A stretch of 64,000 nucleotides of DNA from Escherichia coli (GTDB lineage Bacteria > Pseudomonadota > Gammaproteobacteria > Enterobacterales > Enterobacteriaceae). Every line of letters starts with the position of its first letter. Position 1 is the first letter of the stretch. Position numbers and translations under genes: made by a program. Of this stretch, positions 1,250-49,709 are shown piece by piece. A model generated the notes under the pieces. That model was not told the origin of the DNA. It did not search any database and saw only the letters and a program-made list of their open reading frames with translations. The stretch lies in NCBI RefSeq assembly GCF_003991155.1, contig NZ_CP031294.1. One strand, 5' to 3'.

Positions 1250-1609
1250 TCAACCTTTCTTCATCAACTCTCGTTTAATTTCATCGGTACGCATCGTAAC
1301 GTCGGCAGCTGTGATCGCCTCGTTAAGCTTCACGATGTCCTCGATTTCCTGCGGTGACTTCTCTGCCAGATGGAAAATGGCTGCTCGAATCACGTCAGAA
1401 CGAGTGAACTTCTCGAAGCGAGGGATGAACTTCATCATCTCCAGCAGTTCGAAGTATTCGTCTTCCAGTGACATTGTGCGGCTTTTAATTTTCTCTTTGC
1501 CACGAGTCGGGCGTCCCTGTGGTCTGACTGGTTGGCGCAAAGGAGTTGTGTTCTTAGCCGGTGCATCAGGCTCTTTGCGCTTTGCTAGGTCACCCATTTT
1601 CATGGACAT
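1250..1609 (-). CDS. ParG-like small centromere-binding protein (basic N-terminus, C-terminal ribbon-helix-helix-like region)
   Basis: The 119-aa ORF sits directly downstream of the ParA-type ATPase and overlaps it by one codon (ATGA-type coupling). The N-terminal tail is Lys/Arg/Pro-rich and the C-terminus is a short helical domain. This layout is typical of ParF/ParG type Ib partition cassettes. Confidence 0.5.
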   Translation of the reverse strand: MSMKMGDLAKRKEPDAPAKNTTPLRQPVRPQGRPTRGKEKIKSRTMSLEDEYFELLEMMKFIPRFEKFTRSDVIRAAIFHLAEKSPQEIEDIVKLNEAITAADVTMRTDEIKRELMKKG

Positions 1610-29941: not shown

Positions 29942-31198
29942 CTATCGAGAACCACCAAGAATAACACGGTTTTTGACTGGATACCTACGATGTACTGGAT
30001 AGCCCAATGCGTCTGCACTATGCTCAATGCCACCTGTCTTATCCATATCTCGTGTTCCAGGCTTGTAGATGACTTTTTCCAGTGAATCAATCAAATGCTT
30101 GCACTTCGGATCGATATACAGCCGGATATCTCCAGATGCGGTCATCAGCATTCGGTTAACAGCATTAACACGATCCGCAATTGGCGGGTGCTTTTTCGAA
30201 TAATCGACACGTAAGAATCCCTTCTCTTTGAATATGTCGACGTCAGACTCCCCGCGAGCATGTTGGCGATAAGCACCTGCCGGATCTGGAAATACCGTTA
30301 TCTGTGATTTCCAGCGCCAGAAGCGTCTCTCAAGCTCATCACAAACCTCTGCCGTGTTAGAGGAAAAGAGCACCAATTCATCAATTGCCCATAGCTCACC
30401 ATTTGGCTGAGGTTGCAAAATTACTGAAGACATCGGGTCAATGTTGAAGTCCTGCCCTACCCATATAGGCAACCGAGGGTTGAACTGAAGCGGTTTTACA
30501 TGCACGTTACGATCGAACGGGTAGTAAACGCGCCCGGACATGTTCTCAAAGCTCGCCAGGTACTCCTGAGCGAACGATTTCGGGTCCATATCGTTCTTAG
30601 CAGCTTCAATTTCCGCCGTAGGTACAAACGGAGAATCGGCAGTTACAAACTGCCAGCTCTTCCACTGTCCCTTTCTTTGCAGCTCTACGTTCTGGCCTAT
30701 AGTCCACAGTTTGTGAAATTCCGAGAAGCCTTTTGGCGTACCAATGATCAGTGCACCGCCGCGTGTCGATGAAAGAGTAGGTCGTAACACCTTGTACCAG
30801 GTGTCAGCCTTCATATCCTGAAATTCATCAAGCACTACAAAATGCAACGCTACGCCGCGCAGAGTGTCAGGCTTATCAGCACCTTTGAGGGCGATCTCCG
30901 AACCGTTCTTCAACACGATTGTCATCGTGGTGTCGTTCTTTTTCCTAACCCACTTACGAGGCAGAACTTCCTGTAGATCGTCCCACAAAATCTGGCGAGC
31001 CATCTGGTAAGTAGGAGCGACATACCAGACTCTTTGCTTTTTTTCCTTTGCCGCCGCACGAATAATAGTGGAGATCGACAACCGGGATTTTCCCCAGCGT
31101 CGACCAGCACAAACAACTTTAAATCGATGCGGAGACTGGAAGACTTTCATCTGTCCAGAATGCAGTTGCACAAGACTGAGCGAGGACGGGATTGCCAT
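29942..31198 (-). CDS. terminase large subunit
   Basis: The 418-aa product has an N-terminal ATPase region (…GRRWGKSRLS…, a Walker A-like GKS, and …VLDEFQDM…, a Walker B-like hhhhDE) and a C-terminal acidic nuclease-like region. It is coupled to the upstream small subunit by ATGA overlap. Confidence 0.8.
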   Translation of the reverse strand: MAIPSSLSLVQLHSGQMKVFQSPHRFKVVCAGRRWGKSRLSISTIIRAAAKEKKQRVWYVAPTYQMARQILWDDLQEVLPRKWVRKKNDTTMTIVLKNGSEIALKGADKPDTLRGVALHFVVLDEFQDMKADTWYKVLRPTLSSTRGGALIIGTPKGFSEFHKLWTIGQNVELQRKGQWKSWQFVTADSPFVPTAEIEAAKNDMDPKSFAQEYLASFENMSGRVYYPFDRNVHVKPLQFNPRLPIWVGQDFNIDPMSSVILQPQPNGELWAIDELVLFSSNTAEVCDELERRFWRWKSQITVFPDPAGAYRQHARGESDVDIFKEKGFLRVDYSKKHPPIADRVNAVNRMLMTASGDIRLYIDPKCKHLIDSLEKVIYKPGTRDMDKTGGIEHSADALGYPVHRRYPVKNRVILGGSR

Positions 31199-31830
31199 TA
31201 TTCGTCCTCCCCTTCACTTCCATCATCTGTCGCATCAAATTCGCTTAGAGCTTCTTCTTCCAACGTCTCAAGCAATTCGTCATCGATGATTTCAGGCTCG
31301 TCGTCTTCCTGACGTAATTTCGCCACCTGGGAAGGCGTAAGCTCACCAAATACCAGGTTCGGAATTTCTTCCTCGTCATTTTCCGCATGATCCATGCCCA
31401 ATGCTTTGGACGAAACTTCAAAGCATTTTGCAAGGGTATTACTGGCTCTCTGTAAGCTCTTGAGAGAATCCTCAATCGCCCCTAAAGGCTTACCCTCACG
31501 TTTGGCCGTAGTGACTTCGACCATCACCATCTGCCCCAACGCATACGCCCAGCCGTCATAACGTGTACGACGTTCTTCTATCTTTTCCGCACGGGCTTTA
31601 GCGCGAAGCTCTGCGTCAGATTTAAGAGACTCACGAACCATCTTCCCAACAGAGTCCGCGCCTTTCTCTAATCCTCGCTTTTTGAAATGTCTGGAGAGTG
31701 TTTCACGACGAATGCCGTACTCTTCCTCCAGCTTTGAGAGTGTATATTCGCCTGACGTCCATTTGGCTTCAGCTTCGGCCCACTCCGCTGGTGTCAGGCG
31801 AGTTTTTACCTCGTCTTTTTCGACCGTCAT
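31198..31830 (-). CDS. terminase small subunit candidate (N-terminal HTH)
   Basis: The 210-aa product has an N-terminal helix-turn-helix-like region LSKLEEEYGIRRETLSRHFKKRG and an acidic C-terminus. It lies immediately upstream of the large subunit. Confidence 0.55.
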   Translation of the reverse strand: MTVEKDEVKTRLTPAEWAEAEAKWTSGEYTLSKLEEEYGIRRETLSRHFKKRGLEKGADSVGKMVRESLKSDAELRAKARAEKIEERRTRYDGWAYALGQMVMVEVTTAKREGKPLGAIEDSLKSLQRASNTLAKCFEVSSKALGMDHAENDEEEIPNLVFGELTPSQVAKLRQEDDEPEIIDDELLETLEEEALSEFDATDDGSEGEDE

Positions 31831-31981: not shown

Positions 31982-32025
31982 TTTATATATACAGATGCAG
32001 GTCTTTAAATAAGCTCCCAGACCGA

Positions 32026-32301: not shown

Positions 32302-33192
32302 TTATGCCGGTAAAGCAATTTCTAACGGTTTATCCAAAGGTTGTTTGTCGAATGCCAGCAGTGGCAGCGTGTCAGGCAGTCGACGGCCAAAGTCAGGGTT
32401 TCGGTACACACCATACAACGGAGACGTAAAGCTCAGGTTGTGAATGTCCTTGAGCAGCTTCACAATGCTGGCCTCGTCCACCAGACTGTCGGCAATGTCC
32501 TGAATCGTCGTGCCACGATTCCGCCCAGCTTTTGCCAGGGAACTGTTCTTATGGTAGTCCGCCACCAAATCGCGCAGCGCACGGCGACGACGAGACTCGC
32601 TCATAGCGAACAACTCTTTGACGATCGCCTCGTTATCACCCGGGTCGGAGCGGAAATGGCGCTGGAACACACGCAGTGCACTTTCATAGCTCTTCGGTCG
32701 CTCAGGGCGGATGAACTTAAACCCTGCTTTCATGGCGAAGGGATTGTATTTGCTCATCGAGGACTGGATCTCAATGATTGGCCGGTCATGCATCCTGCTA
32801 ACCAGGTTAATCATTCTATAAGAGACGCCTACGCCACGATACTGAGTATCCACAACTGAGCGACTGATCACCGCAAAGTTGTTATTCACGTACCGACCCC
32901 AGTACTGGTTAGCCACGGTGGTATTAGTGGTTGGTTTCAACTTAGGAAACATGCGGTGGCGAGGTGCCAACAGTAGTTTCGGGTAAGCCATAACCACGAC
33001 GCCCACCAGACGGTCATCAAGTTCGCAGCGATAGTAAGTTGGCGCGAAAGGTTTGCCGTCTGTTTTGTAGTGAAGCGACTTAAGAGCGTGCCAGTCCTCT
33101 ACAGTTCCCTTTGTAACAGTCATTCGCTCCAGAAAGTCCAGATGACGCGGAAACTCTTCAGGGCGGTAGCGTTTAATGATGATGTCCGTCAT
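32302..33192 (-). CDS. hypothetical protein (296 aa), cotranscribed with the ParB-like and ATPase genes
   Basis: ORF only. Overlap-coupled with the upstream ATPase gene. Confidence 0.4.
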   Translation of the reverse strand: MTDIIIKRYRPEEFPRHLDFLERMTVTKGTVEDWHALKSLHYKTDGKPFAPTYYRCELDDRLVGVVVMAYPKLLLAPRHRMFPKLKPTTNTTVANQYWGRYVNNNFAVISRSVVDTQYRGVGVSYRMINLVSRMHDRPIIEIQSSMSKYNPFAMKAGFKFIRPERPKSYESALRVFQRHFRSDPGDNEAIVKELFAMSESRRRRALRDLVADYHKNSSLAKAGRNRGTTIQDIADSLVDEASIVKLLKDIHNLSFTSPLYGVYRNPDFGRRLPDTLPLLAFDKQPLDKPLEIALPA

Positions 33193-33854
33193 GAATGGAC
33201 CTCATCATGACTACCATTGTGATATTCCACCTTCACGCGTTCTTTGTAGTGCTTGGTGATCTGCATATCAGGGCGCAGCGCGTTCTTCAGGTCTTCGTGA
33301 GTCGTCGCCACCATTACCGTCGCACCAACCTTTCGAGCGGCACGCTGGAGGTTAGACGCCACAACCTGAGCGGTTACACGGTCGAGAACAGCGCCGAACT
33401 CGTCAGCAGCCCATACTTTAGCGCCTGACTCAATCAGTTTGGCAATCTTGAGACGATATTTCTGGCCGTCTGACATTTCAGAAGGCTTGCGAACAAACAG
33501 ATATGCATCGTTCAGACCAGCCATAGATAACAACCCAAGCGCATCACTGGTCGTTTTGCCCAACTGATCGATGACGTTAACCTCATTATCGAAGGTAAAA
33601 TCATCGATGGAGGCTACAGACAGCCCTTCATCCTTCATCTGTCGTTGCAACTCGCGCAGCACAACGGATTTGCCGGAACCGGATTGGCCGGTGATGTACA
33701 CCACATCGCCCTGCTTCACTTCCAGCTCCAGATTGTCGTAAAGCGTCCACTCTTTTTCGTCCAGGCCAAGCCCGAACGACTCAGCGATTTCCAACGTGCG
33801 CGTGGTTTTATTTACGCGTGTCTGAAACGATACGTTGATGATGTATTTGCTCAT
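33189..33854 (-). CDS. ABC-type ATPase (Walker A GQSGSGKS, signature-like SDGQK, Walker B VWAADEFGAVLD)
   Basis: Motifs read directly from the translation. Confidence 0.6.
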   Translation of the reverse strand: MSKYIINVSFQTRVNKTTRTLEIAESFGLGLDEKEWTLYDNLELEVKQGDVVYITGQSGSGKSVVLRELQRQMKDEGLSVASIDDFTFDNEVNVIDQLGKTTSDALGLLSMAGLNDAYLFVRKPSEMSDGQKYRLKIAKLIESGAKVWAADEFGAVLDRVTAQVVASNLQRAARKVGATVMVATTHEDLKNALRPDMQITKHYKERVKVEYHNGSHDEVHS

Positions 33855-34552
33855 GCAGCCATCTCCCCGGAAGAGATCTTCTCCGCATATGCCACAAATG
33901 CGTCTACCCCGCTTTCTCCCGTCATTTCTTCCATATGGGCAAGCAAATCACCAACAACAATGGCAGAGCCAGCAGGGAGCGTTTTAAAGCCCAATACGTC
34001 GACAACACGTACTTCTTCCGCTGCAACTTCACGACTGATCTCGGTGTGTTCATCCTTCTGTCGTTTAGTTTCTTCGCCAAGATCGATAACTAGCGAGTCG
34101 GTGTCCATTTCTTCTGTCATACTGCCAACGAGAACATTCAACTCACGCTCTTCAAAGCCGAAAACCTCGATATCGTCCAGAACAAGCGACTCAAGCTCTT
34201 TCTGTAGCTTAATTGCATCGTAATCAATGCTGGCAAGTCGGTTATCTTCAAGGCGCTTCGCACGAACCTCGTCATCACTGAGATCATCGCGAACAATAAC
34301 CGGTACGCGCTCAAGTCCAGCAAAAATTGCAGCCTCACGGCGGCCGTGGCCAGTAATAATTACGTCGTTCTTATCGACCGTAATTGGCTGGTCAAATCCG
34401 CGCTTTTTAATGGCTGCGGCTAGATCTCGGATCTGCTGTTCATCATGCTTTTTGGCATTCATCTCATAGGGAATAAGATCTGCCGGGTCGCGATATACGA
34501 TTTCAAACTTTTTGGTCATTACATACGCTCCTTGTAGTAGTCGACCAGCCAC
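33851..34552 (-). CDS. ParB-like nuclease-domain protein
   Basis: The N-terminal region ...DLIPYEMNAKKHDEQQIRDLAAAIKKRGFDQPITVDKNDVIITGHGRREAAIFAGLERVPVIV carries the ParB/Srx-fold GxxRxxA motif. Confidence 0.6.
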   Translation of the reverse strand: MAGRLLQGAYVMTKKFEIVYRDPADLIPYEMNAKKHDEQQIRDLAAAIKKRGFDQPITVDKNDVIITGHGRREAAIFAGLERVPVIVRDDLSDDEVRAKRLEDNRLASIDYDAIKLQKELESLVLDDIEVFGFEERELNVLVGSMTEEMDTDSLVIDLGEETKRQKDEHTEISREVAAEEVRVVDVLGFKTLPAGSAIVVGDLLAHMEEMTGESGVDAFVAYAEKISSGEMAA

Positions 34553-35217
34553 ACCAGAGCCTCACCAGCGTTCTCCATTTCATTACCGGTGTTAATAGCC
34601 TGCTCTTTGATGATGTTTTTTATGGTTTCTGCAACACGATCTGACGCATCGAAAGTTACTTTGAAGCGCATGGTCTGATGTTCCGCACCCACACGTTCGG
34701 TTTTCTCTCGTTTGTCGGTATCGACAGGCTCATCACTACCACGAGACAACGCCTCCAGTGCTTCAAGGTCGATTGCCGCCTCTTTTGCTAAAACCATCGA
34801 GATTTCGTCGTCATACGGAGCGATTTCAGACAGTTGATAGTCAAGTTCTGACTGAATTTCTTCAATGAAGCGTTGCAATGCGATTTGGTCGTCTTCACCG
34901 TATCGCTCGTTGTCCACCAGTGACATCTGTTTAGCTACGACATCGCTAATTTTGCCCACAGAAAGCACCGGAACCGTTGAAATTCCTTGCTCAATAGCAG
35001 CACGCCAGCGATGTTCGCCGCCGAGGATTTCAAAAAATCCATCTTCAAGTTCACGAGCCAAAATTGGCTTAAAAAAGCCCAATTTTTCGATAGAACCTTT
35101 CAGTTTTTCAAAATTCTGCGCACCAACCGAATTGGTGTTCCAGGTATTCGGGCGAAGGTTGGCAACATCAACCTGCAAAATCGTGATTTTTACATCCATT
35201 TTATTGCTACAATCCAC
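34519..35217 (-). CDS. ParB-like nuclease-domain protein (second paralogue)
   Basis: ...FKPILARELEDGFFEILGGEHRWRAAIEQGISTVPVLSV shows the same motif class as the downstream gene. Confidence 0.6.
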   Translation of the reverse strand: MDCSNKMDVKITILQVDVANLRPNTWNTNSVGAQNFEKLKGSIEKLGFFKPILARELEDGFFEILGGEHRWRAAIEQGISTVPVLSVGKISDVVAKQMSLVDNERYGEDDQIALQRFIEEIQSELDYQLSEIAPYDDEISMVLAKEAAIDLEALEALSRGSDEPVDTDKREKTERVGAEHQTMRFKVTFDASDRVAETIKNIIKEQAINTGNEMENAGEALVWLVDYYKERM

Positions 35218-37190: not shown

Positions 37191-37613
37191 ATGAAATACT
37201 CGCTTCTCCCTCTACTAACGTTACCAGTGTTGATGCTTGCCGCGTGCCAATCACACCCAATATCAATCCATGACGCCAAACCAGCACCGCAGGCCAAAGT
37301 GTTCAAGTATCAAAGCGCAGCGCCAGCTACGTTGGTGGTAATGAGAGACACAGGTTTTGTAGGAGCTGGATGTGATGCTTCCATTTTCATCAACGGCGAA
37401 ACTGTCGCAAAACTGGCTACAGGCGAAAAAGCGACTTTCCATTTAAATGCCGGAGAATTAATTGTGGGTGCATCTCTTGAAGGTGCAGGTTTATGTGCTC
37501 TAAACCCCGCTCGTCAAGAGCGAGAAACGACTCTGAAGAATGGAGACACAAAAGCGTTCAGGGTGTTTACCAGCAATTCTGGTGACATCGACATTCTGCC
37601 AACAACTCTGTGA
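37191..37613 (+). CDS. lipoprotein (signal peptide with lipobox LAAC)
   Basis: MKYSLLPLLTLPVLMLAACQSHP... The start is moved to the internal ATG, which gives a canonical lipoprotein signal sequence. Confidence 0.55.
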   Translation: MKYSLLPLLTLPVLMLAACQSHPISIHDAKPAPQAKVFKYQSAAPATLVVMRDTGFVGAGCDASIFINGETVAKLATGEKATFHLNAGELIVGASLEGAGLCALNPARQERETTLKNGDTKAFRVFTSNSGDIDILPTTL

Positions 37614-37615
37614 TG

Positions 37616-38142
37616 ACATGACAACCAAAGATATTACCTACGGTATCCAAGCTGAACTCTGGCCGCGAGATTACACTAACGTTGAAAAACTACTGATGTT
37701 CTGGCGCAGAGAACAAATTCCTGTAAGGGTCACTCTCGAAGATGGCCAGGCGTTTTGCATGTACGTTTATGGCCTCATGCCATCTCGTAACAAAGTTGAC
37801 CTTTGCCCAGCCCCTTTTGACAAAGAAAATCGTATAAGGCTCCCACTTGAACGCATTAGTACAATTGAATCAGGTGTGGTTGACAGTATCGCTCACGATT
37901 TCAAAGGTCGACTAACAGTTCACCCTGATTATGTCGATAATCGGCCATCACGCCGCGATTTTTTTGCAATTTGCAACCAAGCCTACAAAGCAAACAAATC
38001 TATAAGGGTGTACATGGCGGATGGCCGTGAAATTGAGGGGGTGTCAGCAGGCGCAGATGCTTGTCAGGTTACACTACGTGTCGAGAACGGTAGAAAAATA
38101 GTTGTTTTGTTCGATTGGGTTGAACGAATTTTGCCTTTTTGA
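37616..38142 (+). CDS. hypothetical protein (about 175 aa)
   Basis: The ORF begins MTTKDITYGIQAELWPRDY... The start is chosen at the first ATG after the lipoprotein stop. Confidence 0.4.
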
Positions 38143-39437: not shown

Positions 39438-39641
39438 ATGGTCAGCTATGACAAGATCCGCGCGGAATATCGCGCAAAGTATCGCGCTTATAAACTAGAA
39501 TTAATCGATGATTTAATCGCGCAACGCGACCAATTAAATTTTACGTTTTCTGATTTGCTTAACAGCAAGCGAGATTGCAAGCGCAAACGTGAATACTTAC
39601 GTTTAAGCGCATTAATCGGAAAACTTCAAAATTCTATTTAA
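39438..39641 (+). CDS. small basic helical protein (67 aa)
   Basis: The AAAGGAG RBS lies immediately after the terminator hairpin. The start is reassigned from the track ORF, whose first codons lie inside the hairpin. Confidence 0.45.
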   Translation: MVSYDKIRAEYRAKYRAYKLELIDDLIAQRDQLNFTFSDLLNSKRDCKRKREYLRLSALIGKLQNSI

Positions 39642-39661
39642 TTTTTTTAAGGAGCTTAATC

Positions 39662-39892
39662 ATGTTTGTTCTTATCGCTGGCGTTAACGTCCATAACGAA
39701 TATTATGTTAATCGCATCGCTGGGATCGCTGGTTACGCTGGGCGCGCAGTCGAGTTTATCGATGAAACAACGCGTAAAATTGATTTATTGAGCGACCAGG
39801 AGCGAAAAAAAGCAGACGTGAACGACGCTGATATATTTTTAATGTTAAAAGCGTTTGTAGAAATGGGATTTAAAATCAGTTTACACAAATAA
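39662..39892 (+). CDS. hypothetical small protein (76 aa)
   Basis: TTAAGGAGC RBS. Followed by a terminator. Confidence 0.45.
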   Translation: MFVLIAGVNVHNEYYVNRIAGIAGYAGRAVEFIDETTRKIDLLSDQERKKADVNDADIFLMLKAFVEMGFKISLHK

Positions 39893-39896
39893 AATC

Positions 39897-39921
39897 GAGC
39901 GCCCACTATGGGCGCTTTTTT
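39897..39921 (+). terminator. rho-independent terminator (copy 2 of AGCGCCCACTATGGGCGCT, plus TTTTTT)
   Basis: Identical hairpin to the one at 39402, followed by six T. Confidence 0.7.
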
Positions 39922-39942
39922 CGTTTCCAATACTTCCACAAT

Positions 39943-39970
39943 AACGCGCCATTGATGGCGCGTTTTTTAT
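39943..39970 (+). terminator. second tandem terminator (AACGCGCCATTGATGGCGCGTT plus TTTTTT)
   Basis: Perfect 8-bp stem plus T-run. Confidence 0.6.
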
Positions 39971-40379
39971 TGTCTTTAACTCACTCCAACAACATAAAAA
40001 TAAGCGCCAAAATAACGCCATAAACGCGCTTTTATATCCTTACCAGTACATACCCATTACTTAACACATTAACGCGCTTAAAACGCGTTATATTGCGCTA
40101 TAGCGTATGGTTAATCATTGGCTTTTAGTCTTGCTATGTGATCCGCGTTTATTTGTCGGCGCGGATCGGCATTTTGTTTTGTTCCGTATCCGCTCGCGTA
40201 TTATGTGCGCGTGATTTTTCACATAATCACACCACTTAATCACGTATGTGATTATGCTACGAAAGAAATCTGGATGTCTCAGGCGACGAAAGTCATCATA
40301 ATTTTCCCCGCTCGCCTGTCCGACAACCGCTGGTTGGATTCCACCAGCTTCCCGATGTTTTTTTCTACATAAAGGCGAA

Positions 40380-40500
40380 TGCAGCCGTTTCCCGAAAAAA
40401 TCCTGGCCGTTTCCCGTCGGCTCATGAATACGTTCCTCGCCGTTTCTGAAAATTTCCCTGCGGCAGCTGGTGGCTATAGAGAAAGGGCCGTTTCTGGCCC
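40380..40500. repeat. iteron cluster 1: four copies of GCCGTTTC(C/T) followed by CGAAAA/TGAAAA-type sequence
   Basis: The copies are gcagccgtttcccgaaaaaatcc, tggccgtttcccgtcgg, ctcgccgtttctgaaaatttccctg and gggccgtttctggccc. Confidence 0.5.
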
Positions 40501-40509
40501 TCTTCTCAG

Positions 40510-40992
40510 TTACACGCCATCAAGGATGTGGATGCGGTTGCTTGCGTATACATTCAGCATAAAGTTAGCGCAAAACAGTTTCCATGTATCAACGCCAGCG
40601 GTATACGTAATGTTTTTGCATTTAATCGCATTGTTGGCGATCCGCATCCCCTGCGATACTGCTTCATCGTCGGAAAATTTGAACGACGATTGAGTTTTAA
40701 TCCAGACAGAAATCTGCGTAGCGAACTCAATCAGCTTGGACTGGCAGAATCGCCCGGAGCGCACCGGAAAGACGAACGTTCCGAATCCAGAATTTACCAC
40801 ATATGCTTTCTCAAATACCCGCGAGTAACGACGATTGCCAATGATGTCGCGTGCAATAATGCATTTTTCTTGTGCTGACAGTTCTACCGTCTCATTGTCG
40901 CGCCATGCACCAAGTACTCGTTTTTCAATGTCAGAGAACGTTACAGCGATATTGCCATGTGCGGGTGCGTTTACAGTAGCGATAAAATTCAT
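40510..40992 (-). CDS. hypothetical protein (160 aa)
   Basis: AAGGAAT RBS. The operator element lies 20 to 55 bp upstream. Confidence 0.5.
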   Translation of the reverse strand: MNFIATVNAPAHGNIAVTFSDIEKRVLGAWRDNETVELSAQEKCIIARDIIGNRRYSRVFEKAYVVNSGFGTFVFPVRSGRFCQSKLIEFATQISVWIKTQSSFKFSDDEAVSQGMRIANNAIKCKNITYTAGVDTWKLFCANFMLNVYASNRIHILDGV

Positions 40993-41010
40993 GATTAATT
41001 CCTTATCGTA

Positions 41011-41046
41011 AATAACAAATTGTTTTCTTGTTGGTGTTAATTATCG
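41011..41046. promoter_or_regulatory. island operator/promoter element ATAACAAATTGTTTTCTTGTTGGTGTTAATTATCG
   Basis: The core palindrome is AACAAATTGTT. On the coding strand it gives GATAAT or TAATTA (a -10-like hexamer), then about 12 nt, then the palindrome, then the RBS. Confidence 0.5.
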
Positions 41047-41165
41047 TTGTACGAATAAGGCGTCAAAGTGGAAAGTTGCGGTAGCCGGACGGGAACAGGT
41101 GGGTTTGTCGGTTGCCTGGAGGTAAGAGGTTGGTGTTTTTAGCCTGCGGGAAACAGGATGGTCAT

Positions 41166-41193
41166 TTAAGGCCACCAGCATTGGTGGCCTTAA
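41166..41193. terminator. hairpin TTAAGGCCACCAGCATTGGTGGCCTTAA (copy 1)
   Basis: Perfect 11-bp stem. A near-identical copy with an inverted loop is at 41637. Confidence 0.5.
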
Positions 41194-41196
41194 TCT

Positions 41197-41480
41197 TTAG
41201 TGGAGCAGACCGATGTCGATGGTATCCCCTGAATCATCCACACGGATCATCAGCATGGCAAAGGCGTTTAGTGGATAGCTTGCGTGCCATTCAGGGAAGC
41301 GGTCATCTCGCATGAAGTCGGCAATGTCGTAAACGCATCCCTCAAAGTGGAAGAATCGCGTGCTTACCTGCTCGTCATAATCCACATGATCCATTTCTTG
41401 CTGTTCTGTTTCCGGCAAGTCCAGCCATGATTCAAGAAATACATTTTGTGCTTTAGGGGTAATGGTGAAATCAGTCATGA
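41197..41480 (-). CDS. small acidic protein (about 94 aa)
   Basis: The start is reassigned to the ATG at 41480, preceded by GAGGAT. Reads MLMTDFTITPKAQNVFLESWLDLPETEQQEMDHVDYDEQ... Strongly acidic. Confidence 0.45.
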
Positions 41481-41507
41481 GCATATCCTCACTGCGTAAA
41501 CATGTTG

Positions 41508-41540
41508 TTTTCTTGTTGGTGTAATTATCGCAGTGTAGAT
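41508..41540. promoter_or_regulatory. operator element variant AAACATGTTGTTTTCTTGTTGGTGTAATTATCG
   Basis: Same downstream half (TTTTCTTGTTGGTGT-AATTATCG) as the copy at 41011. The palindromic core is AACATGTT. Confidence 0.45.
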
Positions 41541-41636
41541 AAGGCATAAAAGAAGTTAATACAGGCTGAATACACAAGAAAGGTTCTGGAAGTTGATAGC
41601 CAGGTTTCAAACTAACCTTCGGTTATTAAAAGTCAT

Positions 41637-41664
41637 TTAAGACCACCAATGCTGGTGGCCTTAA
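41637..41664. terminator. hairpin TTAAGACCACCAATGCTGGTGGCCTTAA (copy 2)
   Basis: See the copy at 41166. Both are preceded by GTCATTTAA. Confidence 0.5.
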
Positions 41665-41813
41665 TAATTATCGCCCGATTACGCTAAGGATCTTTTCCTC
41701 AACTGATTTGTTGTTGCGACTAAACTGCCTTGCGTATCTGATGACAGAAGAGGCGTTTTGCTTTCTGACCATCTCGGCTCTTTCCTTCAGGCGTTTCTTG
41801 AAATCGCCCATAT

Positions 41814-42188
41814 TTACCACCAGGCGCAGAAGGTCAGTCTGTTATTGTGAAAGTCGTGGTTCTTAATCAGATCTTCCACAAGCTCTTTCAACTCCCCCAC
41901 ATCATGCCAGTAACCTTCATCGTACTCCTGACTGCCGAAGAAAAAACCTTCCCGGGTAGGCAAGTACTCTTCGCAATTACTTTCGTTTATGTGCATCAAA
42001 TGAGCCTTCAGAAAACAAATGTCATTCATCGTTAATTCTAAAAGCTCACAATTTTCGACTTCACCTACGTTGCGCTCCATCCACCCAACGAGCGCATTGA
42101 ACTTACGGAAGTAAGCAACCTGCTTTCTGGATGCCTCGTTATTCAGATCGTTTTTAGGCTGTGTCTCGATATAGATATCAAGTCCCAT
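41814..42188 (-). CDS. hypothetical acidic protein (about 124 aa)
   Basis: The start is reassigned to MGLDIYIETQ..., preceded by AAGGAAACC. An operator-like AAACAAATTGTTAT lies at 42247. Confidence 0.45.
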   Translation of the reverse strand: MGLDIYIETQPKNDLNNEASRKQVAYFRKFNALVGWMERNVGEVENCELLELTMNDICFLKAHLMHINESNCEEYLPTREGFFFGSQEYDEGYWHDVGELKELVEDLIKNHDFHNNRLTFCAWW

Positions 42189-42305
42189 GATGGTTTCCTT
42201 ATTAAGTTGCTTCAGTGAAATCATTTTCACAAATCAGATAAGGCAGAAAACAAATTGTTATCGGGCATAAGAAAATGGCGCGGTTTACGCGCCATTCAAA
42301 GAGGA

Positions 42306-42698
42306 TTAAGCGAATACGCTTTCAGGGATTAAGGTGTCAGCAGGAATGCCGGAGGTAATGCGCAGGCCGTACTGACCAATCCAGGTAGTGTTGGTATTCA
42401 GGCTGGAGGCGAATACGGTGTTAACCATATTCATCATGGTTTCAAACACCTCTTCATCAACCTGGCGGAAGTAGTTCTCGATTTTCAGCAGCAGCGGGTC
42501 AGTTGCATCGAAAATAGACTGGTATTGAGTCGCGTACTCGCCGCCGGAGGCATCACCTTTACGCACGATCGTACTGGCCTGGACTTCGGCACCAGTTTCG
42601 GTGTTGTACGTAACAACGGTGATTTTTGCCACATTCTTACCTTCGGCGGTTTCAGAGGCATAGTAAACATCAACTGTCAGTTTTTCGCGTTTAACGGT
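42306..42698 (-). CDS. hypothetical protein (about 131 aa)
   Basis: The start is reassigned to MTVKREKL..., preceded by GGAGAGTG. The palindrome GTAAGTATGTACTTAC lies upstream at 42745. Confidence 0.45.
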   Translation of the reverse strand, partial: TVKREKLTVDVYYASETAEGKNVAKITVVTYNTETGAEVQASTIVRKGDASGGEYATQYQSIFDATDPLLLKIENYFRQVDEEVFETMMNMVNTVFASSLNTNTTWIGQYGLRITSGIPADTLIPESVFA

Positions 42699-42827
42699 CA
42701 TTTCACTCTCCGTAGTGTTTTGGTTATTTTTATATTCTATGATCGTAAGTATGTACTTACAATACAAAAAAGCCCCGTAAGGATGGCGGGGCTGTCGTAC
42801 TGTCGACTAATTACCACTTGCACATTA

Positions 42828-43139
42828 TCAGGCTATTGCCATCACTGATGCTCTCTGAATCTCTTGCTGGGCCACGCGGTTAACTTCCATCAAAGCCAGT
42901 TCGAGCTGATGTTCCGGCCACATTCTTTGAAATGCCACCCAGCCTTTTCCACGCTGGCGACGAACATTCATTACATAACGAGTAAAGGTGTATTTATCGA
43001 AAGACACCGCTGTTTCACGGAACAGACGAATAGAGGTTCCATTGGCAACGATGTCCAGCAAAGTTAATTGAGCAACCAGCGCAGGCTTCTCTTTTCTCTT
43101 CTGGTCTTTGTCCAGACCAAGAACCAATGATTTTTTCAT
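42828..43139 (-). CDS. hypothetical protein (about 103 aa)
   Basis: The operator AAACAACTTGTTT at 43152 lies just upstream of the MKKSLVLG start. Confidence 0.4.
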   Translation of the reverse strand: MKKSLVLGLDKDQKRKEKPALVAQLTLLDIVANGTSIRLFRETAVSFDKYTFTRYVMNVRRQRGKGWVAFQRMWPEHQLELALMEVNRVAQQEIQRASVMAIA

Positions 43140-43292
43140 CACAACTCCGTAAACAACTTGTTTTCTCAATGGCGTAAATAATACCAGTAAGAAAACGGCT
43201 ACAAAGCATATTGATCAGGTGCATGAGCGATATGCAGGTTCTTCCCTGCGGCTATAGAGAAATTAAGCCAGCATTGCTGGCTTTGGTTAGGT

Positions 43293-43622
43293 TTACTCGA
43301 ATACTTCAAGAAACTCCTGAACGTCCCAATGCTGGACAAGGTGAAGATAGACCTTAGAAATAACATCATTCTCGCTATCGCATGTGAAGTAGTACTTCTG
43401 GCTGCGGTTGTATGTGTCCACACAAAATTCGCTCATATCCATAAAGTCAGCATCTTCACCCATGTCGCAAATCATCAAAGCAGGTGCGTCATCACGAGTC
43501 ATCAGCTCAAGCACCCACCGCGAATTGATCAGAGTGGAAGACCAACCTTCTAACTCATAAAACTGATCAAACTCTTTTTGAGTTAATTTCTTGATTTGGT
43601 TGATGTCGATATTTGCAAACAT
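43293..43622 (-). CDS. small acidic protein (about 110 aa)
   Basis: The product begins MFANIDINQIKKL... and has high Asp/Glu content. The operator lies at 43633. Confidence 0.45.
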   Translation of the reverse strand: MFANIDINQIKKLTQKEFDQFYELEGWSSTLINSRWVLELMTRDDAPALMICDMGEDADFMDMSEFCVDTYNRSQKYYFTCDSENDVISKVYLHLVQHWDVQEFLEVFE

Positions 43623-43699
43623 AAAGCAATCCTTAAACAACATGTTTTCTTGATGGTGTTATTATCGCAATAACGCACAGGTGAAAAAGGATTTTATTC

Positions 43700-45170
43700 C
43701 GGTGAATGTGGTTTTGGCAGTGAGTTTTCAGGTTCAGTACCGAGTACACTTTTTACATTATTCTGATTTAGTGGCCGAAGGTGGCTGGTGGGCAGAATAA
43801 TCCTCTCCCCGAAAACCTACTGAAATCGATTGTGACCCGTTGGCTGTCTGGCACAATTACGCTGTAACTGGGCATTCAGAGGGAATCCAGCGGTAAGTAA
43901 GTTCGCCTGCACGTGAGCGCCTCTCTTCTTCCCGCACATTACAGGTGGGTAGCCGCAACTCTCCCTCTCGCTATACCGGTACGCCGCCGTTCCTGAACCG
44001 GCATCGAGCCTTCTCCCGAAATCCACACAGGCAACTCGACCGTTTCCCTGAAAACCTCCAGCCGTTCCCCGAAGGCAACCCAGCCGTTTCTGTAGCGGGA
44101 TGCAACCTTTTCCCTGTATGGACCGAAGGCTGACCGTAGGGGTGTTACGGGGGATAAAATCAGGAGTTGAATAAATACGAAAAAGGAGGCGACACCCCTC
44201 CTTCTCTCCCCACTTATACATACCTGGCTTCTTCGCTATACATGTTGTGTTTTATTCGTGTTTTATCTGTCTCAACCTCTCTATGGACGTTAATACTCAC
44301 TCCTTCCAGAACGTTCTATACGGCGACTAATTCTGTTGGTGAATTGGGTGTGTTGTTCTCTCTGTCGGTGTATGTGGTTTCGTTCGTTTTGCGGTGGTTC
44401 TTCTATGGGGTGTTCTCGTCGTTTTGGTGATTGTTCTTCTCCGTGTATGGAGTAATGGCAGGTGGGCGATTCCTTTCGTTATTGTGTTTGAGTTGTTTGT
44501 CTGGAGTGCGTGAAGGGCTTTTGTAGTTATTCGTGTGTTGGGTAATGGCGTTTCCCGTGATTGTTCTGTTTCGTGTCTTTTGGGATTGAGAGAAACCTTG
44601 CGGTTACAGGCTTCGTTGGGGTTTCAGTGATTCTGGTGTTTCTTCGCTGTTTGGGTAATGGCGTGTCGTGGGTATCGCGCGTATGGAAGTTTCGAATTGC
44701 CTGTGAAAGTTAGGTTGGTTGTCCGGTAGCCTGAGAAGAAGAGGTGGGTCTTTTCGGTAGCCTGCCATAAAGAGGTTGGTTGTTTTTGGTAATGGCATAT
44801 GTGTTATTTAGTTGTTTTGTTATGCCTGAAAATAAGTTGTTTATATGGTTATGTAACGCAACGGGAACGATTTTGAGCGTGTGTTTTTGTTGGTAGTGTG
44901 TTGGGTCGTCTGTGGTGAAAATTGGACGCTGTGGCGCTGTCTGCTGCGTAGAATTACGGGTATAAGCAGTGATGTGTGAAAACGTCAATTTTTTAGACCA
45001 AATCGGGTGAAAGCGTTGATGTTTCGTTGATCTGTTATTCAGTTGTTTTCTTATTGGTATAAACAACTGTAACCTATTGATATTTAAGGATGTGATTCCA
45101 GGCATGGAAGGGGAGTAGTGGCGATCAACGGATTCTTATAGAAAAGAATCAAATTGTGACCGCCATTATC
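43700..45170. repeat. 1.4-kb non-coding region: iteron cluster 2 (about 43,960-44,130, the same CCGTTTCCC-GAAAA family as 40380-40500) plus a strongly G/T-skewed segment (about 44,230-44,800) with GGTAATGGC repeated four times and CGGTAGCCTG repeated twice
   Basis: No ORF with a credible start or RBS. The repeats were read directly (ctctccccgaaaacc, ccttctcccgaaatcc, cgaccgtttccctgaaaacc, cagccgttccccgaagg, cagccgtttctgtagcg, aaccttttccctgtatgg). The plus strand between 44,340 and 44,800 has very few A. Confidence 0.6.
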
Positions 45171-45176
45171 AATGTT

Positions 45177-45911
45177 TTACTTAGTTTTGTTTAGCAGAGA
45201 GAGAATTTCATCACTAATTTCACTCGCCTGTTTGATAGCCAATGCAGTTACCTCTTCTATGGTTGGTGACTGTTGATGCTCATATTTGGTTTCGGTTATG
45301 ACAATGTGTTCTTCACCAGAATTTGCGCATAGTGCCGCATTGACGATAAGGTTTGAGTAAGAATTTAGCAGAGCACTGTTGATGAACGCTTTCACGGTAT
45401 TACTGTCTGCACCAAATACATCTTTTCTGACCGCTTCAGCCTCACAGCGAACCCCTGCAGCAACATCGTGAAGAACATGTATGGCCTTGGAGCTTGTTTG
45501 TTCACAGTACTCAATCATTATTGTCGAATTGTTCTGTTCAACAAACGATCTGATGCCTGACGATTTACCCATAGCATCGAAGGCAGCGTGACCCGCACTA
45601 GTAGAGATATCTTCATAGAGTTCTTCATCGCTATCTTTTTCTTCAGGTGTCGAGGTGTCTTCATCGTCGTAATAGATATTGCCTTTAATCAGTGTCTTGG
45701 ACACTTGATATAAACAATAAGAAACGAGATTTAAGCATTGGATTTTAGCTGTATTGTCCTTTGTCGCCTCGCTATTCAGTTCTTTCGCTTCTTCAGTAAG
45801 GCTGTTGATAAGACTTTGTATTTTTTCCAACGCGTTAGGTGCACACTCCGCGTTGTCCATAAAGAATTTATAACCAGTCCCAGGGATTTCTAAACTTTTC
45901 AACTTTTTCAT
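45177..45911 (-). CDS. hypothetical acidic protein (244 aa)
   Basis: Good ORF. The Asp/Glu-rich central segment reads DDEDTSTPEEKDSDEELYEDIS. Confidence 0.5.
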   Translation of the reverse strand: MKKLKSLEIPGTGYKFFMDNAECAPNALEKIQSLINSLTEEAKELNSEATKDNTAKIQCLNLVSYCLYQVSKTLIKGNIYYDDEDTSTPEEKDSDEELYEDISTSAGHAAFDAMGKSSGIRSFVEQNNSTIMIEYCEQTSSKAIHVLHDVAAGVRCEAEAVRKDVFGADSNTVKAFINSALLNSYSNLIVNAALCANSGEEHIVITETKYEHQQSPTIEEVTALAIKQASEISDEILSLLNKTK

Positions 45912-46417: not shown

Positions 46418-48451
46418 TTACTTAACCTGGTGGCCTGGTTTAGCACCAGCATCCGGGCTTAACAGGAAGATATCTTTCCCGCCGGGGCCAGCAGCCATCA
46501 CCATGCCTTCGGAGATACCGAAGCGCATTTTACGCGGAGCCAGGTTAGCCACCATAATGGTGTGACGACCAATCAGTGCCTGTGGGTCTGGATAAGCAGA
46601 ACGGATGCCTGAGAAGACATTACGCTTTTCACCACCGAGATCCAGTGTCAGACGCAGCAGTTTGTCAGAACCTTCGACAAACTCCGCGTTTTCAATCAGC
46701 GCCACACGCAGGTCAACTTTGGCGAAGTCGTCAAAGGTGATGGTTTCCTGAATCGGGTCGTCAGCCAGTGGGCCAGTTACCGGTGCAGCTGTGGCTTTCA
46801 CTTCTTCTTTGGATGCTTCCACCAGTGCTTCCACCTGTTTCATATCGATACGGTTATACAATGCCTTGAACGGATTCACTTTATGGCCCAGCAGCGGTTG
46901 CTGGATACCATCCCAGGTCAGTTCTGTATTCAGGAATGCTTCTGCACGTTCAGTCAGTTTCGGCAGTACCGGTTTCAAGTACGTCATCAGCACGCGGAAC
47001 AGGTTAATGCCCATAGAGCAAATCGCCTGCAGATCGGCATCGCGTCCTTCCTGCTTCGCCACCACCCACGGAGCCTGTTCATCGACATATCGGTTAGCCA
47101 GGTCAGCCAATGCCATGATTTCACGGATAGCTTTACCAAATTCGCGGCTTTCCCATGCTTCGCCAATCACTTCAGCGGCATCAGTAAAGGTTTTGTACAG
47201 TTGCGGGTCAGCCAGTTCGCTTGCCAGCACGCCGTCAAAACGCTTGTTGATAAAGCCTGCATTACGGGAGGCCAGGTTAACCACTTTGTTCACGATATCG
47301 GCATTCACGCGCTGAACGAAATCCTCCAGGTTGAGATCGATATCATCAATGCGCGAAGAGAGTTTCGCAGTGTAGTAGTAACGCAGGCTGTCGGCGTCAA
47401 AATGATTCAGCCAGGTGCTGGCTTTAATAAAGGTGCCGCGAGACTTGGACATCTTCGCGCCGTTCACCGTCACATAGCCGTGAACAAACAGGTTGGTCGG
47501 CTTGCGGAAGTTGCTGCCTTCCAGCATGGCAGGCCAGAACAGGCTGTGGAAGTAAACAATATCTTTACCGATGAAGTGGTACAGCTCGGCTGTGGAGTCT
47601 TTCTTCCAGTATTCATCGAAGCTGGTGGTATCGCCGCGCTTGTCGCACAGATTCTTGAAGGAACCCATGTAGCCAATCGGCGCGTCCAGCCAGACGTAGA
47701 AATATTTGCCCGGCGCGTTCGGAATTTCAAAACCGAAGTAAGGCGCATCGCGGGAGATATCCCACTGTTGCAGGCCGGATTCAAACCACTCCTGCATTTT
47801 GTTCGCCACCTGCTCCTGCAACGCACCGCTGCGGGTCCATGCCTGCAACATTTCGCTGAAAGAGGGCAGATCAAAGAAGAAGTGTTCGGAATCACGCATT
47901 ACCGGGGTAGCGCCAGAAACCACCGATTTCGGCTCGATCAATTCAGTCGGGCTATATGTTGCGCCGCAGACTTCACAGTTATCGCCGTATTGATCTGGCG
48001 CTTTACATTTCGGGCAGGTGCCTTTCACAAAACGATCCGGCAGGAACATGCCTTTTTCCGGGTCGTACAACTGAGAGATAGTGCGGTTTTTAATAAAACC
48101 GTTCTCTTTCAGGCGAGTATAGATAAGCTCAGACAGCTGGCGGTTCTCTTCGCTGTGCGTCGAGTGATAGTTGTCATAGCTGATGTTAAAGCCTGCGAAA
48201 TCAGTCTGGTGTTCCTGACTCATTTCGCCAATCATCTGCTCCGGTGTGATACCAAGCTGCTGTGCTTTCAGCATGATCGGCGTACCGTGGGCATCGTCGG
48301 CACAGATGAAATTAACCTCGTGGCCGCGCATTCGCTGGTAACGAACCCAGACATCAGCCTGGATGTGCTCCAGCATATGGCCGAGGTGGATTGAGCCGTT
48401 AGCGTACGGCAGCGCGCACGTCACCAGAATTTTCTTCGCGACTTGGGTCAT
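46418..48451 (-). CDS. metG: methionyl-tRNA synthetase
   Basis: Translation from [35 protein letters not shown]... carries the class I HIGH motif and KMSKS (…GAKMSKSRG…). The full-length product is 677 aa with a C-terminal tRNA-binding domain. A terminator hairpin follows the stop. Confidence 0.95.
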
Positions 48452-48608: not shown

Positions 48609-49709
48609 ATGAGCGAGTCCAAATCGCCGGATGCCCTGAGAGCAATGGTAGCCGGTACGCTGGCTAATTTTCAGCACCCAACCCTGAAACACAACCTGAC
48701 TACGCTTAAAGCGTTACACCATGTTGCGTTGATGGATGACACACTGCATGTCGAACTAATCATGCCTTTCGTGTGGAATAAGCCTTTTGAAGACCTGAAA
48801 GAGCAATGTAGTGGTGATCTGCTCCGTATCACTGGCGCAAAGGCTATTGACTGGAAGCTGTCGTACAACATTGCCACGCTTAAGCGCGTCAAAAACCAAC
48901 CAGGCATTAATGGCGTTAAGAACATTATCGCCGTCAGCTCAGGCAAGGGCGGCGTGGGTAAATCCTCCACGGCGGTAAACCTGGCACTGGCGTTGGCTGC
49001 TGAAGGTGCGAAAGTTGGTATTTTGGATGCCGATATCTATGGTCCATCAATTCCAACCATGCTGGGCGCGGAAAACCAACGTCCAACCTCACCTGACGGT
49101 ACTCACATGGCACCTATCATGTCTCATGGCCTGGCAACCAACTCTATTGGTTATCTGGTCACCGACGACAATGCAATGGTGTGGCGTGGACCGATGGCCA
49201 GCAAGGCGCTGATGCAGATGTTGCAGGAAACTCTATGGCCTGATCTGGACTATCTCGTTCTCGATATGCCGCCGGGCACTGGTGATATTCAGTTGACGCT
49301 GGCGCAGAACATTCCTGTAACTGGTGCGGTTGTGGTAACTACGCCGCAAGACATCGCGCTGATCGATGCGAAGAAAGGCATTGTGATGTTCGAAAAAGTC
49401 GAAGTGCCGGTACTGGGTATCGTCGAAAACATGAGTGTGCATATTTGCAGTAACTGCGGTCATCACGAGCCAATTTTTGGCACCGGTGGCGCACAGAAAC
49501 TGGCCGAGAAATACAACACGCAGTTGTTAGGCCAAATGCCACTTCATATCTCTCTTCGTGAAGATCTGGATAACGGAACACCAACCGTTATTAGTCGTCC
49601 AGATAGCGAATTTACGGCTATTTATCGTGACCTCGCAGATCGCGTTGCCGCCCAAATGTATTGGCAAGGTGAAGTAATACCTGGCGAAATCGCATTCCGC
49701 GCAGTGTGA
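48609..49709 (+). CDS. mrp: Mrp/ApbC Fe-S cluster carrier ATPase
   Basis: MSESKSPDALRAM... The P-loop reads VSSGKGGVGKSSTAVNLA. The CxxC pair reads CSNCGHHEP. Divergent from metG with a 157-bp intergenic region. A terminator hairpin follows. Confidence 0.93.
   Translation: MSESKSPDALRAMVAGTLANFQHPTLKHNLTTLKALHHVALMDDTLHVELIMPFVWNKPFEDLKEQCSGDLLRITGAKAIDWKLSYNIATLKRVKNQPGINGVKNIIAVSSGKGGVGKSSTAVNLALALAAEGAKVGILDADIYGPSIPTMLGAENQRPTSPDGTHMAPIMSHGLATNSIGYLVTDDNAMVWRGPMASKALMQMLQETLWPDLDYLVLDMPPGTGDIQLTLAQNIPVTGAVVVTTPQDIALIDAKKGIVMFEKVEVPVLGIVENMSVHICSNCGHHEPIFGTGGAQKLAEKYNTQLLGQMPLHISLREDLDNGTPTVISRPDSEFTAIYRDLADRVAAQMYWQGEVIPGEIAFRAV

Follow-up and report, generated by a model that had tools for sequence, protein, structure and literature searches.

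What could be the function of a stretch of DNA that contains no gene and instead carries two kinds of short repeats beside a segment of strongly unequal strand composition? The question is raised by positions 43,700-45,175 of the window analyzed here, a 64,000-nucleotide stretch of Escherichia coli DNA. A first-pass annotation, made from the letters alone, had suggested an iteron-type replication origin or centromere, a long noncoding RNA or an unusually long Rho-utilization (rut) region. When used as a query, the 1.5-kb region was 99.9% identical to the E. coli plasmid pEC17CM6_2 (110,667 bp, on which the window starts at position 32,001); identity was 97% with the phage-plasmid Cyrano/pLF82 and about 67% with the Salmonella phage SSU5. 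On the basis of these matches the window was assigned to an SSU5/pHCM2-type phage-plasmid. Ungapped comparison of pEC17CM6_2 with the full 64 kb gave 8,168 mismatches, for which an indel shifting the register is the most likely cause. The region acts in cis as a DNA element and belongs to the conserved phage core; it is neither a gene nor the plasmid replicon, and it appears to be a hitherto undescribed conserved backbone element of SSU5/pHCM2-type phage-plasmids. Searches of the literature on SSU5-type elements yielded no description of it. Its role is a more tentative matter. We infer that it may serve lytic-mode replication as an origin or control region under the command of a repressor, a candidate that leads the alternatives considered here while falling short of an even chance.

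The Prokaryotic Genome Annotation Pipeline (PGAP) places no gene in 43,700-45,175 of the 99.9%-identical plasmid. Substitutions among 16 lineages showed no three-nucleotide periodicity (ratios of 1.0-1.9, compared to 2.8 for a neighboring coding control), and the length differences between lineages correspond to indels of 11, 11 and 23 nt, none a multiple of three. The earlier statement that no credible open reading frame (ORF) lies between the island genes is therefore upheld. For the same lack of codon periodicity and of three-nucleotide indels, hidden minus-strand genes (CYRAN_103/104, SSU5_108/109 and 66-aa PGAP calls) and hydrophobic plus-strand mini-ORFs were both rejected as genes. The possibility that the repeats are degenerate remnants of a known insertion sequence (IS), a check proposed with the first-pass annotation, was also ruled out, as genomes have a single copy of the region (median 1), its locus is fixed, it is confined to SSU5-type plasmids and it shows no coding signal. 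Additionally, the Rfam 15 families, CsrB/RsmZ-type sponges included, gave no match at gathering score over the whole window and only chance-level matches (E > 0.08) in 39,800-45,300, with none in the strand-skewed core.

Homologous DNA was identified in 832 PLSDB plasmids from Klebsiella, Escherichia, Enterobacter, Salmonella, Citrobacter, Cronobacter and Shigella and in 12 phage records. Counts of the region and of the phage-core helicase agree almost one-to-one in all of these genera except Klebsiella, where 425 copies of the region stand against 346 helicases and the surplus consists of fragment copies in larger plasmids. Two 200-kb Klebsiella plasmids (L013, 4710-5480; L014, 5001-5186) carry such a fragment, 0.2-0.8 kb of the Klebsiella-type version, trapped between IS3- and IS5-family elements in a large IncFIB/IncU background. 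A psiA neighbor had prompted consideration of a conjugative leading-region element of the Frpo/ssi type, which was rejected because the psiA-side match is an IS-flanked fragment. The long imperfect hairpin of about 300 nt presenting -35 and -10 elements, as in Frpo/ssi, was not found either, since 44,700-45,180 folded as single-stranded DNA gave only short local hairpins.

Conservation was followed in 16 representatives drawn from 56 loci. Among them 44,120-45,175 is 60-90% identical, and both flanking genes are replaced by unrelated ones between lineages. In the relative pCAV1335-118 (helicase at 70% protein identity) and in the metagenome lineage L283, the region is beyond blastn alignment. 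The order of its parts is nevertheless kept there, from the iterons through block D, a C-rich spacer and a G+T-rich stretch with GTAATGG-like repeats to TTGAC boxes and the CTTATAGAAA hairpin. Phage-plasmids of Acinetobacter and Aeromonas, which have different plasmid replicons, show a syntenic gap that is free of genes over more than 1 kb and contains repeat arrays without the skew. Because this gap persists in relatives with different replicons, we assign the region to the phage core. The repeats in the gaps have sequences of their own: six tandem 17-bp copies of CCTCAAATGAGGACTTC in Aeromonas caviae p1 (L168, 21152-21275) and scattered TATCTATCTATATAGAT-type copies in A. baumannii p5666_3 (L167, 18140-18790). 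The Acinetobacter gap also contains two copies of TCCTTATACCTGTT, a motif that has CTTATACC in common with the E. coli element.

The first conserved component is an array of direct repeats. Allowing up to two mismatches, GCCGTTTCCC occurs on the plus strand at 44,008, 44,039, 44,061, 44,083 and 44,105 (spacings of 31, 22, 22 and 22 nt), with degenerate copies at 43,986 and 43,806. The iterons reported at about 43,960-44,130 are thus real, as five good copies and the degenerate one at 43,986. The same family forms a second cluster, as had been noted, at a distance of 3.6 kb in the window (40,384, 40,406, 40,439 and 40,487, plus strand). Four iterons had been counted there, three of which are genuine; the fourth, at 40,485-40,500, forms the stem of the hairpin that terminates the minus-strand gene 40,510-40,992. 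The two 250-nt bins with these clusters have the highest GCCGTTTCCC density in the whole window, and on the plasmid the clusters lie at 72.4 and 76.0 kb and nowhere else. Cluster 1 was found in all lineages with enough flanking sequence, and every lineage examined has both clusters in the same orientation, 2.3-4 kb apart. A scan of viral contigs for GCCGTTTCCC iterons beside a recognizable gene in other elements returned only SSU5-type loci and chance or simple-repeat matches.

Two further observations concern the surroundings of the clusters. Two tandem, highly conserved intrinsic terminators at 39899-39965 on the plus strand, GAGCGCCCACTATGGGCGCTTTTTT followed by AACGCGCC..GGCGCGTTTTTT, end the plus-strand helicase operon, and about 400 bp of conserved gene-free DNA separate them from cluster 1. 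The Chi octamer GCTGGTGG adjoins both clusters and was rejected as a special feature of the region, as it is about 11-fold over-represented plasmid-wide on both strands. The whole plasmid NZ_CP190020.1 holds 26 copies in 110 kb compared to about 2.3 expected, and the window holds plus-strand copies at 17555, 36608, 40466, 41651, 43784 and 47621 and nine on the minus strand.

The second component is the strand-skewed core. The plus strand of 44,340-44,800 consists of 40% T, 33% G, 13% C and 13% A, and this is the sole place in the 64 kb where G+T reaches 0.66 per 300 nt (peak 0.74; length of the stretch 0.5-0.7 kb). The strong skew described earlier is therefore present and unique in the window, although T had been overstated at 45% and A is not nearly absent. 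GC skew turns from negative to positive at about 44,330, and 30 GTT triplets lie on the G+T strand compared to one on the other. Across 470 nt of the minus strand, correctly described as C/A-rich and G-poor, C makes up 33% and G 13%. Its consensus folding energy lies between -0.3 and -1.0 kcal/mol for each 120 nt and is near zero over 44,250-44,650, leaving essentially no consensus structure. The motif GGTAATGGC, said to occur four times, is found exactly three times with AGTAATGGC as the fourth copy; the underlying repeat is the 24-nt unit TTCTCCGTGTATGGAGTAATGGC, with four copies here and up to six in Salmonella-type relatives. The pair CGGTAGCCTG...GAGGTGGGT, reported twice, was located at 44,724 and 44,755 (the second reading GAGGTTGGT), together with a degenerate third copy and three more at 41,076-41,168. 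The proposed computation of skew and repeat structure has thus borne out both. Left of the core, block D of the E. coli and Klebsiella lineages contains a minus-strand terminator-like hairpin (44,206-44,180). A pair of CTTATAC motifs (44,213 and 44,966) was dismissed as promoters or inverted ends for want of -35 elements and of an extended inverted repeat.

The third component links the region to the regulation of the element. Early promoter modules, composed of a -10 GATAAT, about 10 nt, AAGAAAACAAnTTGTTT and then a Shine-Dalgarno sequence (SD) and ATG, lie at 2,329, 41,029, 41,514, 43,167, 43,651, 46,286, 46,317 and 59,104, with further members of the family at 31912 and 42244. These modules share the palindromic operator AAACAAnTTGTTT between the -10 and the ribosome-binding site, and its AAGAAAACAA module occurs seven times in the window where 0.3 are expected. 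The region has only two AT-rich patches, 44,804-44,846 and 45,046-45,087, and operator sites coincide with both. The patch around the internal operator is in the bottom 1% of the window for GC, and the palindrome there is perfect in non-E. coli lineages and pCAV. The second site is split into inverted half-sites, CAGTTGTTT at 45,040-48 and AAACAACTG at 45,061-69, with a half module at 45,043-45,052. This split copy had been placed as a driver of minus-strand transcription into the region. The half-sites do exist, but no lineage has a usable -10 with them, and the same holds for the other operator copies inside the region. In pCAV-type relatives the counterpart is a complete palindromic operator with a -10 no better, and the split operator is not convincing as a promoter in E. 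coli or SSU5 lineages. Within the region of four lineages no conserved sigma-70 promoter was found, nor a conserved terminator, the 44,206-44,180 hairpin being restricted to E. coli and Klebsiella lineages. In sum, the first-pass observation was largely right and its interpretation is supported in part, with corrections to the skew, the GGTAATGGC count, the fourth iteron and the promoter.

At the right edge, hairpin K follows directly 3' of the stop codon of whichever gene is upstream; in five lineages the same loop motif is presented on stems built from different sequences, of modest stability. The sequence CGGTAGC matches the RfaH ops element at 7-9 of 12 positions on the wrong strand for any downstream operon, which we take as coincidence. 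The loop of hairpin K presumably also resembles the site nicked by gpII of f1, and the element has no recognized gene for a nickase. The positions of all parts are collected in Table 1.

Table 1. Conserved parts of the repeat region and related sites elsewhere in the window
Feature	Position	Strand	Remark
Iteron cluster 1, GCCGTTTCCC-type at 40,384/40,406/40,439	40384-40460	+	Just downstream of terminator hairpin 40,485-40,500
Further site of the 31-bp repeats, with CGGTAGCC-N-AGGTGGGT in three copies	41076-41168	+	Upstream of early promoter at 41,068
Left-edge conserved block: Chi octamer (43,784), then iteron-like CTCTCCCCGAAAACC	43784-43830	+	Same arrangement in pCAV relative
Iteron cluster 2: six GCCGTTTCCC(T)GAAAA copies, 22-bp phase, A-tract after each	43985-44127	+	Conserved columns
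Block D (about 80% identity): GGGGGAT..TTGAATAAATACG..GCGA..CCCCTCC..CTTATAC	44130-44222		Conserved
C/T-rich, G-poor spacer of variable length; GC skew sign change at right end	44223-44335	+	C-rich equivalent in pCAV and L283
Keto-skewed core, G+T 70-74%, four TTCTCCGTGTATGGAGTAATGGC units; GTAATGGC at 44,453, 44,542, 44,655 and 44,789	44336-44800	+	
31-bp repeats CGGTAGCCTG-N8-AAGAGGTGGGTC, two good and one degenerate	44700-44786	+	
Internal operator AAACAAnTTGTTT (44,830-44,843) and partial copy (44,812-44,821)	44799-44846	-	In AT-rich patch
Block I (77-90% identity): GGGTATAAG, inverted TTGAC/GTCAA boxes, half-operator module ACCAATAAGAAAACAA	44950-45070		
Hairpin K: stem TGGCGATCA/TGACCGCCA around invariant CTTATAGAAA (45,134-45,143)	45119-45165		Different stems in five lineages

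Repeats of this kind first call to mind the origin by which the plasmid is maintained. Like the RepFIB/IncFIB origin of the same element, the region is a gene-free stretch with direct repeats on the same replicon. However, the repeats flanking repA (plasmid position 1-1056) are of the unrelated ATCCACTATAGAGAG type, and GATC clusters and DnaA boxes accompany only those; the two sites are 35-75 kb apart. No DnaA box TTATCCACA with up to one mismatch was found in 41,542-45,803, and the two 40-nt AT-rich patches lie 700-900 bp from the iterons. A natural deletion is provided by Yersinia pestis pMT1, which keeps 39,631-41,551, cluster 1 included, and is without cluster 2 and the skewed stretch. 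An IS1541 copy in pMT1 (L164, 13199-13657) marks the loss of most of the small-gene island, the repeat region and about 30 kb beyond. The unrelated iterons, the distance to repA, the lack of DnaA boxes and the maintenance of pMT1 rule out a RepA (IncFIB) origin, and to judge from pMT1 the region is dispensable for plasmid maintenance. The suggested origin role consequently stands insofar as the region is a conserved cis-acting DNA site with both clusters in every lineage, but not as the origin that maintains the plasmid. Cumulative GC skew of the plasmid tracks gene orientation and was uninformative.

A different maintenance function, as the centromere of a ParA-like ATPase system or as a RepA-titrating copy-control locus, is in our judgment very improbable. 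Direct-repeat arrays in two clusters do resemble centromeres or incA-type loci, the element encodes a small ParA-like ATPase and a 117-aa partner without an assigned centromere, and the operator motif is densest in 44,810-45,070 and also present at the parA-like promoter. Nevertheless, the repeats are unrelated to the RepA iterons, the par-like operon is about 40 kb away, and the location is the phage core and not a variable plasmid module. The stable inheritance of pMT1 without cluster 2 or the skewed region weakens the proposed centromere as well, with the reservation that pMT1 presumably possesses another par system. As an observation apart, the ATPase gene pair (1250-2277, minus strand) consists of a small ParA/MipZ-type ATPase of 222 aa and the 117-aa protein without assigned family, and resembles a type Ib partition pair. 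Its promoter bears the early-gene operator, and the operator-binding protein may double as a centromere-binding protein. Two ParB-N-domain proteins and ABC-type ATPases are encoded separately at 33189-35199 (minus strand) between the terminase genes and the helicase, an arrangement kept out to the Acinetobacter and Aeromonas relatives.

Many distinct conserved motifs, phased repeats with a second cluster and a fixed phage-core position led us to prefer a protein-bound DNA element over an RNA gene. For the same motifs, repeats and position, and because the element encodes its own T4-like replication set with no known second origin, an origin or control region for lytic replication was rated likeliest. 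The set comprises a gp32-like single-stranded DNA-binding protein (SSB), RecA, UvsW, Mre11/Rad50-like proteins, a DnaB-like helicase, primase, DnaE and RNase H; the element has its own replisome and recombination genes with no second origin annotated. The direct-repeat array is conserved together with the phage core, with a 22-bp phase in all lineages and syntenic arrays in distant relatives. The region outlasts both flanking genes and occurs nearly one-to-one with the phage-core helicase, and it is neither the RepA origin nor needed for the persistence of pMT1. Also consistent with lytic replication are the GC skew switch at about 44,330, the operators over the only two AT-rich patches, the silence of the core flanks in the lysogen (described below) and the character of the DNA, which is noncoding, belongs to no Rfam family and has almost no conserved RNA structure. 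The skew switch, the 30:1 GTT bias and the unfoldable A+C strand would fit a loading or priming zone.

A possible sequence of events can be outlined. In the lysogen, the repressor of the element would sit on the AAACAAnTTGTTT operators over both AT-rich patches and at neighboring early promoters and keep the region silent. After induction, a putative early protein would bind the 22-bp-phased, A-tract-flanked GCCGTTTCCC iterons and may bridge both clusters, as in the ori and crr of phage P4. Opening of the DNA would then spread into the adjacent strand-asymmetric DNA, where the unfoldable A+C-rich strand and the GTT-dense G+T-rich strand could suit loading of the T4-like SSB, the DnaB-like helicase and primase.

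Several points weigh against this proposal. Pfam and PHROG scans of 26 neighboring and replication-module proteins revealed no initiator family, and the island proteins are without functional assignment; a phrog_2500 protein that adjoins the DnaB-like helicase likewise received no function in these scans. The region has no DnaA boxes and no classical long AT-rich unwinding element, and only a core of 10-15 nt is conserved in each 22-bp repeat. In the pCAV relative cluster 1 is reduced to one degenerate copy, and the skew is missing in the Acinetobacter and Aeromonas relatives. T4-like systems can initiate from transcripts without iterons, but no conserved promoter is present here. An R-loop origin of the ColE1 or T4 oriF type was rejected, as no conserved plus-strand sigma-70 promoter was found in four lineages; the sole module-like promoter remnant faces the minus direction and would yield a C/A-rich RNA. 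What the analysis establishes is the anatomy of the region, its conservation, its absence from a plasmid-only derivative and the silence of the core flanks in the lysogen; the replication activity and a protein binding the repeats are putative. Considerably more speculative is the idea of a new kind of phage origin, in which two looping iteron clusters would act together with a 0.5-0.7 kb strand-asymmetric "landing strip", one strand unable to fold and the other dense in priming triplets, so that a T4-like replisome could start on a plasmid prophage under direct repressor control. No less novel would be the alternative that the landing strip is transcribed solely after induction, as a C/A-rich decoy RNA for Rho or Hfq that shifts expression from host to phage.

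The composition of the minus strand leads to the main competing explanation, which we consider unlikely though it ranks next. An early untranslated minus-strand RNA under repressor control would start at about 45,040-45,070 and run for about 700 nt, unstructured and C/A-rich. It could act as a leader of great length on which Rho loads and by which the gene island downstream is insulated or gated, or as a lytic decoy that titrates an RNA-binding factor (Rho, Hfq or a GU-rich small RNA such as GcvB) through repeated GCCAUUAC..GGAGAAGAAC units. With 33% C, 13% G and no consensus structure the minus strand is compatible with Rho action, and it has the usual character of a rut site, where the RNA is rich in C, poor in G and unstructured for about 80 nt or more. 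The suggestion of a long rut region is to that extent borne out by textbook composition, but it leaves the conserved motifs unexplained. Besides the composition and the folding energy near zero over 44,250-44,650, such an RNA is favored by the AAGAAAACAA module, elsewhere located between -10 and SD-ATG, which has a copy at 45,043-45,052 and a complete operator in pCAV. The terminator-like hairpin with a T-run at 44,206-44,180 in E. coli and Klebsiella lineages and the repeated units, reminiscent of protein-sponge RNAs, point in the same direction.

Expression data bear on both explanations. Published RNA-seq of the LF82/Cyrano lysogen gives values for annotated ORF calls on the flanks of the core in the lysogenic phase, 44,222-44,710 having no annotated ORF; expression is at the detection floor for the call spanning 44,711-45,067 and low for the one spanning 43,817-44,221, and the gene upstream is 10-30 times higher than these calls (PMC9928086, S1 table). 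The transcript level thus falls 10-30-fold from CYRAN_102 to CYRAN_103, across hairpin K, a drop that can be counted in favor of the early RNA. A long noncoding RNA expressed in the lysogen, as the first-pass annotation had it, is not supported by these flanking values, and the detection-floor value over 44,711-45,067 also speaks against the early RNA. Additionally, the -10 at the 45,043-45,052 module is without its key A in all lineages, with no conserved sigma-70 promoter to replace it, and the terminator is absent in the Salmonella-type, pCAV and L283 lineages. A GcvB sponge was rejected because pairing with GcvB R1 is no better than that of composition-matched shuffles and is explained by composition. 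The substitution spectrum gave no clear signal of selection for G/T exchange, with no strong extra exchange, and the 22-bp-phased iterons and their second cluster are left unexplained by such an RNA. Like rut regions and the sponge RNAs CsrB and CrcZ, the minus strand is C-rich, G-poor and unstructured with repeated units; unlike them, it is about 10 times the typical rut length, a conserved promoter or terminator was not found, the flanks are silent in the lysogen and Rfam gave no match.

Two other readings were also weighed. In the first, the small terminase would bind the repeats as a pac-like recognition site from which headful packaging starts. Terminase recognition sites are typically repeat arrays, the element is part of the conserved phage core, and the 7-mer CGTTTCC at the center of the iterons presumably also occurs in the R sites of lambda cosB. 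However, we regard packaging as improbable, because the terminase genes (29,942-31,830) are 12-13 kb away and pac sites are normally found within terS or next to it. The large subunit belongs to the Terminase_6N/3 (T4/P22) type and not to that of lambda GpA, the putative small subunit has no Nu1 match, and by coordinate arithmetic the SSU5 record begins near the terminase genes and not here. A lambda-type cos was ruled out by the type of the large subunit, the lack of a Pfam match for the putative small subunit and the 12-13 kb distance.

In the second, the region has no dedicated function and is a graveyard of decayed promoter and operator modules, kept similar by recombination between flanking cargo zones. 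Parts of the 24-nt unit and 44,630-44,700 do resemble the -10, +1 and operator part of the early-promoter module, and further copies of the 31-bp repeats precede a real promoter at 41,068. Decay nevertheless seems to us very doubtful, as the region outdoes its flanks in conservation, occurs in practically all members of six genera and keeps part order, skew and loop motif in lineages too diverged for blastn. Packaging, a centromere and nonfunctional decay are each less likely than a lytic origin or an early RNA.

The genes around the region place it at a boundary. The window proceeds from tail, head and terminase genes through two ParB-like genes and a UvsW-like helicase to a run of small early genes, after which come the repeat region and then methionyl-tRNA synthetase, ApbC and a type I restriction system. 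The full-length methionyl-tRNA synthetase gene (46418-48451, minus strand) and the ApbC/Mrp iron-sulfur carrier gene (48609-49709, plus strand) both adjoin the region. The restriction-modification system beyond them is complete, and the same slot holds other cargo, such as a GIY-YIG nuclease, in other lineages. Among the genes to the left, the product of 37540-38142 (plus strand) closely matches FljA, the phase-1 flagellin repressor (Pfam Flag1_repress, E = 2.5e-84), with a weak Hfq-like signal toward its C-terminus, and the phage-plasmid may thereby turn off host flagellin. The phage-plasmid of the window also carries the resistance gene dfrA51.

In clinical E. coli, Klebsiella, Enterobacter and Salmonella, phage-plasmids of the SSU5/pHCM2 type are common, and they carry resistance genes. 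An obvious place to seek their switch from low-copy plasmid to phage replication is a conserved cis element that lies in the phage core and is guarded by a repressor, and such an element would offer a handle on copy-number bursts, induction and curing. The region additionally marks the border of two cargo hot spots and provides a landmark for typing. If the skewed stretch is functional as DNA or RNA, it would be an unusual case of selection on strand composition over hundreds of bases.

Among known systems, the closest in layout is the bipartite origin of phage P4, a phage able to live as a plasmid, in which ori and crr are both bound by the alpha protein. As in P4, two clusters of short direct repeats in the same orientation lie kilobases apart on a phage that is also a plasmid. 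In contrast, the repeats of the two are unrelated in sequence, the present element has no recognized alpha-like primase-helicase, and P4 is without a 0.7-kb skewed stretch. The iteron origins of lambda and SPP1 (oriL/oriR), and P1 oriL under c1-repressed transcription, lie inside or beside an initiator gene, whereas the present region is gene-free and AT-rich only in two 40-nt patches. It shares with them phased repeats of about 20 bp with A-tracts, repressor operators on top and, as a candidate, a lytic-mode origin distinct from the plasmid origin. Among repeat-rich cis-acting phage regions, the long strand-skewed segment is the unusual feature of this element.

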